Below are positions 2,833 through 21,701 of a stretch of 64,000 nt of DNA, piece after piece. This DNA is from Nitrosarchaeum sp. Its GTDB lineage: Archaea > Thermoproteota > Nitrososphaeria > Nitrososphaerales > Nitrosopumilaceae. The notes beneath the pieces were generated by a model. The model was given only the letters and a program-made list of their open reading frames with translations, did no database searches and had not been told where the DNA came from. Location: contig OZ245020.1 of assembly GCA_965223865.1 (NCBI GenBank), forward strand, positions 1,440,001-1,504,000. Reading direction: 5' to 3'. How positions within the stretch are numbered: position 1 is the stretch's first letter; every line of letters begins with the position of its first letter. The position numbers and the translations under genes are program-made.

Positions 2833-2971
2833 TGTAGCTTTATACCTTTTCTAATAATTAAGAATGATGAAATTTTAAAATAAACCGATCAATAATGCAA
2901 GTAAAAGAAAGGTGAGGCAATCATTTTTTACTTCAAAAAACATCTTTATCTAATGATTTTTTCAAAATAAC

Positions 2972-3100
2972 ATGACACTCTCAAAATATTGTCGCGCAAC
3001 ATTACATGATACTTGTACTGGTTTTATTGATTTGAAAAAGGAATGTACTTGTGACTGTCATGAAAAAGAAGAATCTGATTCTTTTTGGAAAATCAAATAA
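2972..3100 (+). CDS. 42-aa Cys/His-rich microprotein
   Basis: Hand translation MTLSKYCRATLHDTCTGFIDLKKECTCDCHEKEESDSFWKIK; TTTATC box ~27 nt upstream. Confidence 0.6.
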   Translation: MTLSKYCRATLHDTCTGFIDLKKECTCDCHEKEESDSFWKIK

Positions 3101-3329
3101 ATTTATTGATTGCATTTAGGATAGAATTTGTAAAAAAGATCTATTATGAGTTGCAATGACAATCACAAGAGCAGCTTGAACTAGAAATATGTTCTATGAT
3201 GCAACTAGTACACGGAATTATTGCTGTTATTTCAGACATAATTTTACAGGCAGTTTTTGAATATTAGCAATTACTAAGAACTTATCTATTATCCATAAAA
3301 TCCATCCAAACAGTTATTTTGAATTTAAG

Positions 3330-3397
3330 GCCAAGGGAAATTCAATCATTTTAGGAGGATGATTAACAAGCAGTGGCATCTGCTTTTTCCCCTTGGC
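3330..3397 (-). ncRNA. Candidate three-way-junction small RNA
   Basis: Closing stem GCCAAGGG/CCCUUGGC, inner stems AAGCAG/CUGCUU and AAUCAU/AUGAUU; TAAATA 31 nt upstream; upstream region paralogous to 18988-19041. Confidence 0.6.
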
Positions 3398-3482
3398 TGA
3401 TTAGTCTTAGGCACGTTTTCAATATTTAGGGGTTCTTTTTTGTAGTAATTTTCAAATACTTGCGATCATAAGTAATAGTAGC

Positions 3483-3544
3483 GTCTTTTCAAGGGTTAGA
3501 CGTGGCCTAACGCTAGCTAATGGCAGAACAACAACCCTTTTGAC
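3483..3544 (-). ncRNA. Candidate hairpin small RNA or 3'-UTR structure
   Basis: AAGGGUU/AACCCUU plus inner GCC-UAGC/GUUA-GGC; TTAATC 27 nt upstream. Confidence 0.4.
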
Positions 3545-3571
3545 TAGTTAAATTCCAGTTTTTCAGATTAA

Positions 3572-3850
3572 TCATATTACTTGAACACCGTTCCAGAATG
3601 CCACCATTCCTTTGATTTTTTTGGCAGCATCATTGGGTTCAGCATAATACCATGCACAATCTTTGTTAGTTTTTCCATTGACTGTTACAGAATAGTAATT
3701 TGCCATCCCTTTCCATCCACAAAATGTCGTAAGATCAGTTTTTTCAAAATATTCTGATTTTATAGAATCGATAGGAAAATAGTGATTACCTTCAACTACA
3801 ACGGTATCAGCACTTTCAGCAATTACAACCTCATTCCAAATGGCTTTCAT
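3572..3850 (-). CDS. DUF427 domain protein
   Basis: VVEGNHYFP...CGWKGMANYY...AWYY signature. Confidence 0.9.
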   Translation of the reverse strand: MKAIWNEVVIAESADTVVVEGNHYFPIDSIKSEYFEKTDLTTFCGWKGMANYYSVTVNGKTNKDCAWYYAEPNDAAKKIKGMVAFWNGVQVI

Positions 3851-18870: not shown

Positions 18871-18909
18871 AAGCAGCAATTATGTTTTCAAAGTCCATAA
18901 AAAATAATT

Positions 18910-18998
18910 GCCAGGGAAGAGTGGTATTGAATGATTTACAACAAGATAGAGTATTTGGTCGCATGAAAATGAAGCTATCCTCTTGTAACTCCCCTGGC
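18910..18998 (-). ncRNA. Candidate stem-closed small RNA, paralog of 3330-3397
   Basis: GCCAGGG/CCCUGGC closing stem, inner UUACAA..GAUAG/CUAUC..UUGUAA; TAAATA 31 nt upstream; T6 downstream. Confidence 0.6.
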
Positions 18999-19073
18999 TG
19001 ATCAATGTTAGACACGTTTTTAGTATTTAGAGATTCTTATTTTAATTCTCAAAATCTGTATTTTAAAAACGCT

Positions 19074-19315
19074 GCAGGTTATGAACGAATTATTCGTGTT
19101 GGTTATATGTAAAAATACAATAACAGAATCATGCAATAATGCATTTGTTTATCGTTTAACTGACCATATTTTCTACGATAATGCTTCATCTGTTTCCACA
19201 AGAGTCATTTTTGGCACCATTGCATTTTTTGATTTAAAGTTGGACAAGGGTAAGGCAGATACATTAACCATCAGATGAATATTCAGAAACAACACTAGTA
19301 GATTTTGCATTATGA
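19074..19315 (+). ncRNA. Candidate two-domain structured RNA (overlaps doubtful ORF 19081..19278)
   Basis: Several short stems, long-range UUCAUCUG/CAGAUGAA and AUAAUGC/GCAUUAU, linker motif shared with 42509-42573. Confidence 0.35.
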
Positions 19316-19403
19316 AGCTGATTTAAGGAAATTTTTGATTATCAAGTGTGAAATGAACTGAAAATAGAGTAACTCTTAACTAGTTTTACGATCTATAATA
19401 CAA

Positions 19404-19519
19404 TGAGTTTTCAGAACTCAGGCCTAACCGCGCGTAAGGGTCAAAGAAAACCGATTTTCCGACATCACGGGAAGACGTCATTGGTTAATGGCTAATTTCC
19501 GTGCTGATTGGAGCTAATC
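19404..19519 (+). ncRNA. Candidate GC-rich structured RNA (or 30-aa ORF 19403..19495)
   Basis: UGAGUU/AACUCA, GGCCU/GGGUC and a long hairpin containing CACGGGAA/UUUCCGUG; CTTAAC ~28 nt upstream. Confidence 0.5.
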
Positions 19520-19709
19520 TAATTCTAGATGACAATTTAAGAATGAATAAAATTTGAATATAATTAAGAAAAATTTCACTAATTTTTCTAATTTACAAGC
19601 TTTTTGACTTGAAGGATTTTTTAATTTTCTATATCACATCGAGTATTTCATAAAAATTTCAAAGATTAAATCAATATTTTAAATGAAATAATAGTAATAA
19701 AATAACAGA

Positions 19710-19943
19710 ATGGGTATTGGAACAAATTCAGAATACGTAAAATTCTATTTGAATTTACGAATGGGGAAGGATGTTAATTTATTGAGTTTCATAAATAATG
19801 AAAAAAGAATACTAAAAGGAAAATTAGAAAACAAGAACTTGAACAAAGACAGAATATTAAAAGGAATTGAAATCCTAAATGAGTTAATATTAGAAATAAA
19901 TGAGATTGGAGAAAACGAGGTTTTAAAAAAATATGGAAAATGA
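19710..19943 (+). CDS. Hypothetical protein
   Basis: 77-aa ORF overlapping next start. Confidence 0.65.
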   Translation: MGIGTNSEYVKFYLNLRMGKDVNLLSFINNEKRILKGKLENKNLNKDRILKGIEILNELILEINEIGENEVLKKYGK

Positions 19944-20496
19944 TTTAAAAATTATCAGAATAGAAATTATGCGAGTGTTAAATGAAAATGGAAAAACAAG
20001 GAGTTCAGAATTAGTCAAAAGAGTTGCAAAAAAAACTGGAAATGAGAAAATTATATACAGAGAGATTAGCTTTCTTGTAGAATCAGGAGAAATCGAAAAA
20101 AAGTACATAGTAAATCCCATATTGAATATGAATTGATTAATTTATCAGAATCTGCAAACAATCAATTAAAGAATTTACATGCAGAGTTAGATATCTCTAG
20201 AAGAATTAAAAAAATTTTATGAAGAAGCAGAACAAATCAAAGTTGGTTATCACCAAAGAGTTAGAACAACGATTCATTTTATTCATATTGTTCAGTCAAT
20301 TGAAGGGATTATGAGATTATTGTCTTTTTATCCAACATTCAAAAAAGACAAAATGTTTTCTCAAATTAATAGAAAAATTAGCGATTATTGGCTACTTTTG
20401 ATGGAATTTATCATGCACCAATCTGAAGAACAGTTTCTTAATGAAGTACTCGCCAATATCAGAATAACTCAAATAAATTCAAAAAGTGTTAATTGA
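19933..20496 (+). pseudogene. Winged-helix regulator-like gene with two frameshifts
   Basis: wHTH pattern (RSSELVKRV...IYREISFLVESGEIEK); frame restored by adding single bases near 20100 and 20195, joining ORF 20311..20496. Confidence 0.7.
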
Positions 20497-20515
20497 AATC
20501 AAATCCAAAACAAGA

Positions 20516-20809
20516 TTAATCAATTATCTTTACAAGATAGATAGGTCTGTCGGCTTTATGCTCATATACAAATTCTGAAATTTGTATATTTTTTATCCGC
20601 TTATTAGTAAAAAAGTGAATATAAGCTCGATTATCAGCTGTGAGTAATTCACAGTAATTATCCACACAAAATGTTGCCAAATTTTCATCATATTCGCGTT
20701 GCTTCAAATCATCTCCAACAACAAAAATTTCGTTATAATTGTCTAGTAGTTTTTTATTTTCTTGGTTTGCTAACCATTTACAATTTTGATCAATTAAAAC
20801 ATTAGTCAT
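20516..20809 (-). CDS. Hypothetical protein, possibly PIN-like (Mut7-C/DUF5615 type)
   Basis: VLIDQN...D..L...LLTADN pattern. Confidence 0.55.
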   Translation of the reverse strand: MTNVLIDQNCKWLANQENKKLLDNYNEIFVVGDDLKQREYDENLATFCVDNYCELLTADNRAYIHFFTNKRIKNIQISEFVYEHKADRPIYLVKIID

Positions 20810-20911
20810 AAAACAACCAGAAAACTGGGATATTTAGTTTATTATTTAATGAAATTAAATATTCTTAATAAAACAATACAATTCTTATGGTTTATCCTTA
20901 CTAAACAAATA

Positions 20912-21136
20912 ATGGATGAAAAAATTGAAGACAAATCCGAAGAATCAAGAAAAAAACACATCAAATATTACAAATCATTGTCAAAAACAATAAAAAATAT
21001 TGAAAAAGAAATAGAATCTGAAAAAGAAGAGAAAATAATTAATCACTTGAAAGAAAGGGTAGATGCAATGAATTTGGATAAAAAAAGGATTACAAAGATG
21101 TTCCCTAACATATTAAAGGAATTAAAAGATGAGTAA
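20912..21136 (+). CDS. Small helical hypothetical protein
   Basis: Second ATG of ORF 20849..21136; similar to 15121..15330. Confidence 0.65.
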   Translation: MDEKIEDKSEESRKKHIKYYKSLSKTIKNIEKEIESEKEEKIINHLKERVDAMNLDKKRITKMFPNILKELKDE

Positions 21137-21335
21137 ACCAAGCGAAAAGAATCATAACAAGCACTTAGATATGCTTCAAGATTACAAAAATTACATTGTA
21201 AAATATATTTCAGAGTTAGAAAAGCTTGATAACCAATCAGAATTTGCAAAAAAATGGAATGAGAATACAATAAAAGAAAGAAGAGAAGAATTAGTAGTAA
21301 TAAACAAAATTATAAAAAATTTAATTAGATTTTAG
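21129..21335 (+). CDS. Small helical hypothetical protein
   Basis: 68-aa ORF overlapping previous stop. Confidence 0.65.
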   Translation: MSKPSEKNHNKHLDMLQDYKNYIVKYISELEKLDNQSEFAKKWNENTIKERREELVVINKIIKNLIRF

Positions 21336-21701
21336 ATGTTTTTGCTTTTGATATTTTTGAGATAATTCATATAATTTTTCACAAAAAGAATCCAAACGAG
21401 AAGACATAATTCCATCAATCCATGAAAGTTCTTTATTCATAGAATAGTTAACAGACGATGATTGTGGAAAATTGCTTTATTCTATGTATTTGATTTCATT
21501 CTCAAAAAAGATTTTTAGATATTTTATTCCTTCTTCTGAAAAAATATAATTGCATGGCATTAAATCAATTTGTACATTATAGTTTCTATTAGCTTGATTG
21601 ATTCTAGCCTTGATGAAAGGGAGATTAATTTGAGCGCATTTTCTATAATACTTATCATATTCAAACATCTTTGAGTCAGAAATGTATTTTTTAAAAGACA
21701 T
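21321..21701 (-). pseudogene. Hypothetical gene with internal TAA
   Basis: Frame of ORF 21477..21701 stays open for 51 more sense codons after the TAA at 21477-21479. Confidence 0.55.

Follow-up and report, generated by a model that had tools for sequence, protein, structure and literature searches.

Does the short sequence that occurs twice in this stretch of a Nitrosarchaeum chromosome mark a pair of small RNA genes, and what could such genes do? The window, that is the whole 64,000-nt stretch analysed (G000:C1:1440001-1504000), lies in a genome of 2.01 Mb with 34% GC and contains archaeal genes, among others TFB fragments, purS/Q/L/F, TatC and a TrkH-type transporter. Positions 3390–3440 and 18991–19041 align without gaps and are identical at exactly 41 of 51 positions, which bears out the approximate hand count of the original prediction; the runner-up ungapped 51-mers on both strands of contig C1 (1.99 Mb) score 33 and 30. 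A 36-nt IUPAC consensus of this module has two exact matches in the window versus none expected from 100 shuffles, and with up to eight substitutions allowed it still finds just these two sites genome-wide. Such a repeat greatly exceeds chance expectation. When the 126-nt cassette was compared with its own genome by BLAST, the second copy was missed, so patterns and a sequence profile were used instead. Read on the minus strand, both copies have the same order: an AAAGAAC-like element, CTAAATA, a spacer of about 22 nt and AGCCA(A)GGGG. Each copy thus combines a TAAATA box, a conserved spacer and a predicted RNA of 70–90 nt with a terminal stem of 10–11 bp; the two are referred to here as cassette 1 and cassette 2.

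The promoter was calibrated on the genome itself (G000), using 1348 ORFs of at least 150 aa and positions relative to the first ATG. TAAATA and TTAAAT accumulate 26–30 nt upstream of the first ATG; the commonest TAAATA starts are −28 (14 cases) and −27 (12 cases), and 56 cases fall within −33 to −26. Since TATA-like hexamers pile up at the leaderless distance, most genes of this genome appear to be leaderless, and TAAATA is their TATA box. Likewise, the tRNA genes of G000 carry a similar box 27–32 nt before the mature 5′ end, with AARGA directly before it. The TATA box of cassette 1, TAAATATT, is located at 3421–3428 on the minus strand, and its TAAATA is invariant across cassettes. An AAAGAAC element at 3432–3438 on the minus strand, 3–4 nt upstream of the box, may serve as a BRE-like element; AARGAA is present in 8/8 cassettes of alignment A3 and upstream of most further cassettes. 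Taking the TAAATA T at 3428 and the genome's own TATA-to-start distance, transcription of cassette 1 is predicted to start at 3398–3402, one to five bases ahead of the G that opens the stem, in agreement with the start near 3397 proposed originally. For cassette 2, the module consensus, the alignment and the profile place the promoter (AAGAAT, TAAATACT and the conserved spacer) at 19004–19042 on the minus strand, and the predicted start should lie at 18999–19003.

The spacer between TATA box and start (3399–3420, minus strand) contains AAAAYRTR and YCTAAS and ends, where transcription should start, in a palindromic core resembling TGATCA. It is conserved across cassette types although the RNA interiors diverge, and leaderless promoters have no conserved spacer. 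In a genome-wide pattern search the spacer and its TGATCA core were shared by no other promoter in G000. The region may represent an operator or an initiation element specific to the family. As a regulon motif, TGATCA is rejected, being absent from other promoters. A second candidate, AAAACGTG, had been proposed as a motif just downstream of TATA boxes. It occurs four times in the window versus 1.4 expected, a count reached in 3 of 100 shuffles and weak alone, and its orthologues and paralogues read AAAATGTG, AAAGTATG, AAAATGAA, AAAATATG and AAAACGCA, so that the motif is not conserved. Because the genome motif search found it at no other promoter in G000, AAAACGTG does not qualify as a regulon motif, and that part of the original prediction falls.

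Downstream of the promoter, fold, GC content and the relatives' copies together delimit a predicted type-1 small RNA at 3329–3402 on the minus strand, starting at 3398–3402 and with its 3′ end at or just past 3329. GC is 0.43 over the cassette 1 RNA (3350–3419) versus 0.21–0.30 in the flanks. In both folds and alignments the 5′ strand of the terminal stem P1, GCCAAGGGGAA (3387–3397), pairs with the 3′ strand, UUUCCCUUGGC (3330–3340), the latter also picked up as part of inverted repeat I17. The minus-strand fold of 3328–3399 is a three-way junction in which an 11-bp terminal stem surrounds two hairpins (dG −27.7, z −4.5), and none of 200 shuffles folds as well. Hairpin 1 (3368–3385; AAGCAG / CUGCUU, loop AUGCCA) is confined to type 1a, where the loop GAUGCCA is invariant in 4/4 sequences; other sequence takes its place in types 1b and 1c. 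Hairpin 2 (3342–3366) displays the loop CCUCCUAAA at 3350–3358, unpaired in both the MFE and the centroid fold, and no interior sequence is more strongly conserved than its 5′ half, AAUCAUCCUC. An interior of two hairpins, one of them looping out a C/U motif, is thus found as had been foreseen. At another locus, L038, the stem of hairpin 2 is preserved, by eye, through changes on both sides.

The small RNA predicted for cassette 2, of type 2, occupies 18909–19003 on the minus strand and consists of a 10-bp P1, a long hairpin P2 and a G-poor single-stranded 3′ linker. Its closing stem pairs GCCAGGGGAG with CUUCCCUGGC, and the fold of 18908–19000, a 10-bp terminal stem with one long hairpin, has dG −29.7 and z −4.7. 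A complementary 3′ strand is therefore present in both copies, but the difference between the two stems, said earlier to be a compensated exchange of A-U for G-C, is in fact one extra A-U pair in copy 1. A T6 run (18899–18904) comes after the cassette 2 RNA; across cassettes, no oligo-T terminator consistently follows the stem.

Plus-strand folds are less distinct (z −3.4 for cassette 1 and −2.2 for cassette 2), and in 13/17 cassettes it is the cassette strand whose folding energy is lower. Within the helices predicted by RNAalifold, G·U or U·G cells number 25 versus 3 A·C cells (15 versus 3 in alignment A6, 10 versus 0 in A7). Since an A·C cell is a G·U cell on the other strand, this asymmetry favours the minus strand as the RNA, in line with what selection on an RNA of that strand would produce, and backs the strand assigned in the original prediction. 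Double compensatory changes are few (none of 17 pairs in A6, 1 of 10 in A7) and one-sided G·U changes dominate. Given the rarity of double compensations and the misplacement of a few rows by MAFFT, the structural support is real but modest. A coding reading was rejected for either strand; translations compared by eye keep no frame between copies.

BLAST searches of 41 relatives revealed an orthologue of each cassette in genome G004 (94% and 88% identity over the intergenic regions), further copies in G004 and one type-1 copy in G001. A sequence profile of the promoter and 5′ stem strand, R1, counts two copies in G000, six in G004 and one in G001. It found none in the other four of the seven same-genus genomes searched, three of them 99% complete and one 60%. 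Among 151 family genomes R1 detected no cassette beyond these three carriers, the other genera sampled likewise being without one; a weak match in G083 was dismissed as not cassette-like. Exact-pattern scans added cassettes from two other titled records and from metagenome contigs. The scan of public genomes returned 34 stretches, 8 of them in Nitrosarchaeum- or Nitrosopumilus-titled records; the one inspected of the remaining 26 (L062) is a tRNA-Met gene and a chance match. Carriers are thus the three same-genus genomes, a few other Nitrosarchaeum or Nitrosopumilus records and metagenome contigs. Searching the genome and its relatives with the module, as had been recommended, therefore yielded the two copies in G000 and more in G004, G001 and metagenomes.

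In all, 17 distinct intact cassettes were found and folded, and all have paired ends. One more G004 copy, at the 67-kb locus, keeps the promoter and has no 3′ partner strand. Two interior types recur. Type 1 (n=9 sequences) consists of the terminal stem, a variable first segment and then a hairpin, in which the 5′ half AAUCAUCCUC is almost invariant and the 3′ half changes in ways that preserve pairing; its loop reads CCUCCUAAA, CCUCCCAAA, CCUCCCGA, CUUCCCG, CCUCUCGGA or CCUCCCGGA and is always C/U-rich. Type 2 (n=8) has the terminal stem, a hairpin of 9–14 bp with the apical loop UUUCAU...CGACCAA, and 15–20 nt of G-poor single-stranded sequence before the 3′ strand. The proposal of paralogous units that share a promoter and both terminal-stem strands around unrelated interiors holds, and the design recurs in all 17 distinct cassettes. 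With gathering thresholds Rfam matches nothing in the whole window, and around both cassettes at E ≤10 it returns chance-level matches only (HIV_FS2, E 3.5). The cassettes probably constitute a new, lineage-specific family of archaeal small RNA genes with a narrow and patchy distribution. That no member was found in four of seven same-genus genomes or in the other genera sampled indicates that the family is not a core regulator.

These features make it rather likely that cassette 1 is an expressed, independent sRNA gene. The best explanation as a whole, an independent gene that encodes a structured non-coding RNA of about 70 nt whose type 1 acts in trans as a base-pairing regulator, is evenly balanced. 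The repeat, the folds, the conservation throughout the family, the strand bias and the promoter geometry are shown; from sequence we infer transcription, the ends of the RNA, its targets and its mechanism as follows. The minus strand would be transcribed from its own TATA promoter (3421–3428), starting at 3398–3402 at the foot of the stem. A stem of 10–11 bp would join the two ends of the RNA and most likely protect them, leaving the exposed interior to do the work. In this young family, promoter, spacer and the two strands of the closing stem would be passed on from member to member, with the interiors exchanged: type 1 would form a junction with a hairpin presenting AUCAUCCUCYC, and type 2 a long hairpin with a G-poor single-stranded linker. 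The C/U-rich hairpin of type 1 could then mask purine-rich, Shine-Dalgarno-like sites on the minority of mRNAs that have leaders.

That type 1 masks ribosome binding sites is a tentative proposal, which we hold to be somewhat less than evenly probable. Such sites exist in a minority of genes, GGAGG being enriched 6–20 nt before ATG in about 32 of 1348 long ORFs. The anti-Shine-Dalgarno loop of the original prediction stands in so far as the loop is C/U-rich in 9/9 type-1 sequences; it is not always open, since variants 1b and 1c allow part of the CCUC motif (loop CC) to pair with the GG that follows. With at most two mismatches, 27 sites are complementary to the 14-nt seed, and they show no concentration at start codons. 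Among start sites the best seed match, 11 contiguous nt at the ribosome binding site of nuoN, is about what chance would give in 4 million positions.

Small RNAs with an action of the kind proposed here are known from bacteria, where RsaE/RoxS of Firmicutes and Yfr1 of cyanobacteria are short RNAs whose C/U-rich unpaired motifs pair with G-rich ribosome binding sites. These differ in being bacterial and in having rho-independent terminators and no archaeal promoter, and their Rfam families are unmatched here. In the available part of one review, sRNA154 and sRNA41 of Methanosarcina mazei are described as intergenic sRNAs that mask ribosome binding sites, in the case of sRNA41 inside polycistronic mRNAs (PMC5867862). 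As far as that part of the review describes them, the likeness is that the cassettes are archaeal and intergenic, would be independently promoted and expose an anti-RBS sequence (PMC5867862). Of the features of this class, promoter geometry and independence from neighbours would fit a separate transcript, and an unpaired loop complementary to GGAGG is present. An anti-RBS role would also be in keeping with a genome that is leaderless for the most part and has GGAGG at only some of its genes. In contrast to those sRNAs, the cassettes belong to another phylum, lock their ends in a long terminal stem, share promoter and stem while swapping interiors, and are patchy within one genus, with a role that is predicted.

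Several other RNA classes are set aside. Box C/D sRNAs carry a C box (RUGAUGA) near the 5′ end, a D box (CUGA) near the 3′ end and a K-turn; no such boxes are conserved across the copies on either strand (by eye), and Rfam gives no match. H/ACA sRNAs have a two-sided pseudouridylation pocket, and their lower stem is directly followed by an ACA box. The internal loop of the cassettes is one-sided, and the bases after the stem are AAU, ACU, CUU or GCA, not ACA. Retron msr/msd RNA was ruled out, G000 having no reverse transcriptase gene (PF00078 is not found there, and control matches occur in 3/14 genomes). Y RNAs combine a conserved terminal stem with a variable interior and are encoded by paralogous genes with upstream TATA promoters. 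The cassette paralogues resemble them in their common closing stem, upstream promoter and varying interior. Unlike Y RNAs, they have no Ro60/TROVE partner in G000 (PF05731 is not found in this 99.98% complete genome, control matches occurring in 2/14 genomes) and show no sequence or Rfam match.

The alternative that survives best is also built on the closing stem. It holds that the cassettes specify a stable RNA acting by shape and through protein partners, with ends that mimic a tRNA acceptor stem and serve as substrates for RNase P and tRNase Z; in addition, hairpin AUCAUCCUCCU would mimic the 3′ end of 16S rRNA (GAUCACCUCCU) and titrate a factor that binds that end. tRNA-like small RNAs released in this way are known, as in mascRNA, which is cut out by RNase P and RNase Z. 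P1 of cassette 2 (stem at 18910–18998, minus strand), GCCAGGG / CCCUGGC with an A after it, exactly matches the 7-bp acceptor stem together with the discriminator base (A73) of tRNA-Phe, encoded at G000:C1:1228851-1228925 on the minus strand. An A follows the stem in 8/8 type-2 cassettes, and the distance from TATA box to 5′ end equals that of tRNA genes. Additionally, no nearby oligo-T is present at the tRNA-Phe gene or at the cassettes, which fits 3′ ends made by processing. Stem identity, promoter spacing and lack of a terminator together suggest maturation by tRNA-processing enzymes, with type 1 lacking the stem match. However, many features were examined, and this match was noticed only in hindsight. 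The stems of type 1 depart from it by an extra A-U pair and are followed by C, G or A (C in cassette 1). The RNAs lack D, anticodon and T arms and form no cloverleaf; ARAGORN finds no tRNA in the window, and Rfam no tRNA match at E ≤10. As to the mimicry of 16S rRNA, whose 3′ end reads GGAUCACCUCCU, the likeness extends over only 10–11 nt, and an anti-Shine-Dalgarno sequence looks like that anyway. We regard this explanation as unlikely.

As for cassette 1 itself, its surroundings contain further elements. It is located within a lineage-specific insertion of about 710 nt (2869–3577) that directly follows the stop codon of a DUF427 gene and carries cassette 1, a predicted divergent gene termed here U RNA, and two tiny Cys-rich ORFs. 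In G005, G003 and G001 no more than about 6 nt separate the DUF427 stop from the next gene's promoter, with no insertion; the insertion is present in G000 and G004, G006 being left out of this comparison. No clear target-site duplication is apparent at its ends. The two tiny ORFs are convergent (2972–3100, plus strand, 42 codons; 3144–3239, minus strand, 31 codons) and share a C-x-C-D-C-H motif that corresponds to a 14-nt inverted repeat (3048–3061 / 3156–3169). Pfam gives no match for either. Both the insertion and the U RNA gene had been overlooked in the earlier reading of cassette 1.

A TATA-like box of the U RNA, TTTCAAATAC, is located at 3450–3459 on the plus strand; it conforms to T.T[TC]AAATAC in 9/10 aligned copies and stands 27 nt before a conserved YAGCGTC at 3480. 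The predicted U RNA (3480–3541, plus strand) is about 62 nt long and pseudoknot-like, ends in CCC and a U run, and is recognised by its covarying pairs and its GC of 0.43–0.44. In the helix GGGUU / AACCC the fourth pair covaries (UA 6 / GC 4), and in the inner helix two pairs do so (CG 6 / GC 2 each). The 5′ helix GCGUC / GACGU becomes GCAUC / GAUGC and GCGGC / GCCGU in other copies (by eye) and opens with a G·U, which is an A·C on the other strand. A U RNA profile (R2), run on the 151 family genomes, matches only G000 (1), G004 (3) and G001 (2), the cassette carriers, and a U RNA lies directly beside 7/17 cassettes. The stretch 3450–3541 is thus a probable second small RNA gene, on the plus strand and back to back with cassette 1.

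The surroundings of cassette 2 are likewise unstable. Its spot (18871–19680) is hypervariable, with unrelated small genes there in G003, G005 and G006. A 65-codon ORF (ORF65; 19081–19278, plus strand) is divergent from cassette 2 and has kin beside cassettes 2, 2b and A/B of G004. It has no Pfam match and only one homologue, of 85% identity, in a collection of 5.8 billion proteins. A run of small ORFs without Pfam matches (19700–21700) adjoins cassette 2 and the hypervariable spot. Elsewhere, three G004 loci (L032, L033 and L035, near 160 kb, 566 kb and 67 kb) have about 400 nt upstream of the cassette in common, including an ORF of about 40 codons that ends ...WKRLEKWHIGRRNF on the strand opposite to the cassette. 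The insertion, the hypervariable spot and these shared flanks indicate that the family is accessory and has recently moved or been duplicated.

The same observations could be taken further, with cassettes, U RNA and tiny ORFs forming a selfish or accessory module, for instance an RNA-antitoxin or addiction-type unit or DNA carried by an unrecognised mobile element, and spreading from one intergenic hot spot to another. The absence of the insertion from three relatives, the hypervariable spot, the shared upstream DNA and small divergent ORFs of the three G004 loci and the near-orphan ORF65 all agree with such spread. So does the variation in copy number (two in G000, six in G004, one in G001 and none in four other same-genus genomes), with the U RNA in exactly the same three genomes. 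Against it, no transposase, integrase or other conserved protein was found within about 3.5 kb, where 36 ORFs at 10 loci gave housekeeping matches or none, nor was a clear target-site duplication. IMG/VR likewise holds no cassette-like match, its single match, on a giant-virus contig, being presumed chance, and a reverse transcriptase and a TROVE protein are both missing from G000. An addiction unit is also poorly matched by the pairing energies. In type I toxin-antitoxin systems of the tisB/istR type, a small toxic ORF lies next to the gene of an RNA that is complementary to its mRNA. Here the duplex energies of the sRNA with the divergent transcript (−32.8 to −39.4) are no better than those of shuffled RNA (means −34.1 to −34.8), complementarity within the insertion amounts to a 10-nt match only, and this candidate class was rejected. 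The module as a selfish or addictive entity is accordingly improbable in our judgement.

A further combination of these ideas is that cassette and U RNA make up a two-RNA accessory module without a protein of its own, moving between Nitrosarchaeum-like intergenic hot spots, in which the tRNA-Phe-like stem would let RNase P, tRNase Z and perhaps the CCA-adding enzyme excise and stabilise the interior ‘cargo’. We put this forward as speculation and consider it improbable. If true, it would offer a natural plug-in scaffold for evolving new archaeal small RNAs.

Another alternative is a cis-acting role, in which the cassette would be the leader (riboswitch, thermometer or protein-binding element) of a downstream gene, here the 31-codon Cys-rich ORF at 3144–3239. 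Each of G000, G004 and G001 does have a same-direction ORF about 85–90 nt after type 1, and aptamers commonly take the shape of a three-way junction of about 70 nt. Cassette 2, however, is directed towards the 3′ end of a membrane-protein gene that converges on it, and in G004 cassette A is directly followed by cassette B, ending 17 nt before its TATA box. By eye, type-1b copies are followed by apparent coding on the other strand, and each of the ORFs that come after G000-1 and G001-1 has a TATA-like box of its own 27–28 nt before the ATG. Rfam gives no riboswitch match. On this arrangement the cassettes are independent units, and a leader function is very improbable.

The remaining alternative, a non-functional repeat such as a MITE with the stem as its terminal inverted repeat, accounts for short elements with inverted ends, several copies and a patchy distribution, yet it is equally improbable in view of the 45 conserved nt that always lie outside one end only, the G·U-type asymmetry of the supposed inverted repeats (25 versus 3), the interior loops conserved over divergent copies, and the missing target-site duplications and transposases, which the original prediction had named as the signs of such an element and of which neither was found at the insertion ends or among the 36 neighbouring ORFs of the 10 loci.

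If the cassettes are expressed as independent sRNA genes, they would provide a first comparative handle on riboregulation in the ammonia-oxidizing archaea, a globally important group, and may show how a mostly leaderless archaeon controls its few Shine-Dalgarno mRNAs. Supplements aside, no description of a regulatory small RNA in ammonia-oxidizing archaea or Nitrosopumilaceae was found in the literature; in the parts available, PMC5069720 and PMC13475601 concern other RNAs. The narrow and patchy distribution limits the general importance of the family. Its design bears on the origin of sRNAs, in that promoter and closing stem stay fixed and the interior can be exchanged, with a second predicted sRNA gene placed back to back in some cases.

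Elsewhere in the window, a TFIIB-type factor is present as two minus-strand ORFs (247–453 and 591–1124), one part, of 177 codons, holding the zinc ribbon and the other, of 68 codons, the cyclin repeat, and may be a split or broken gene.
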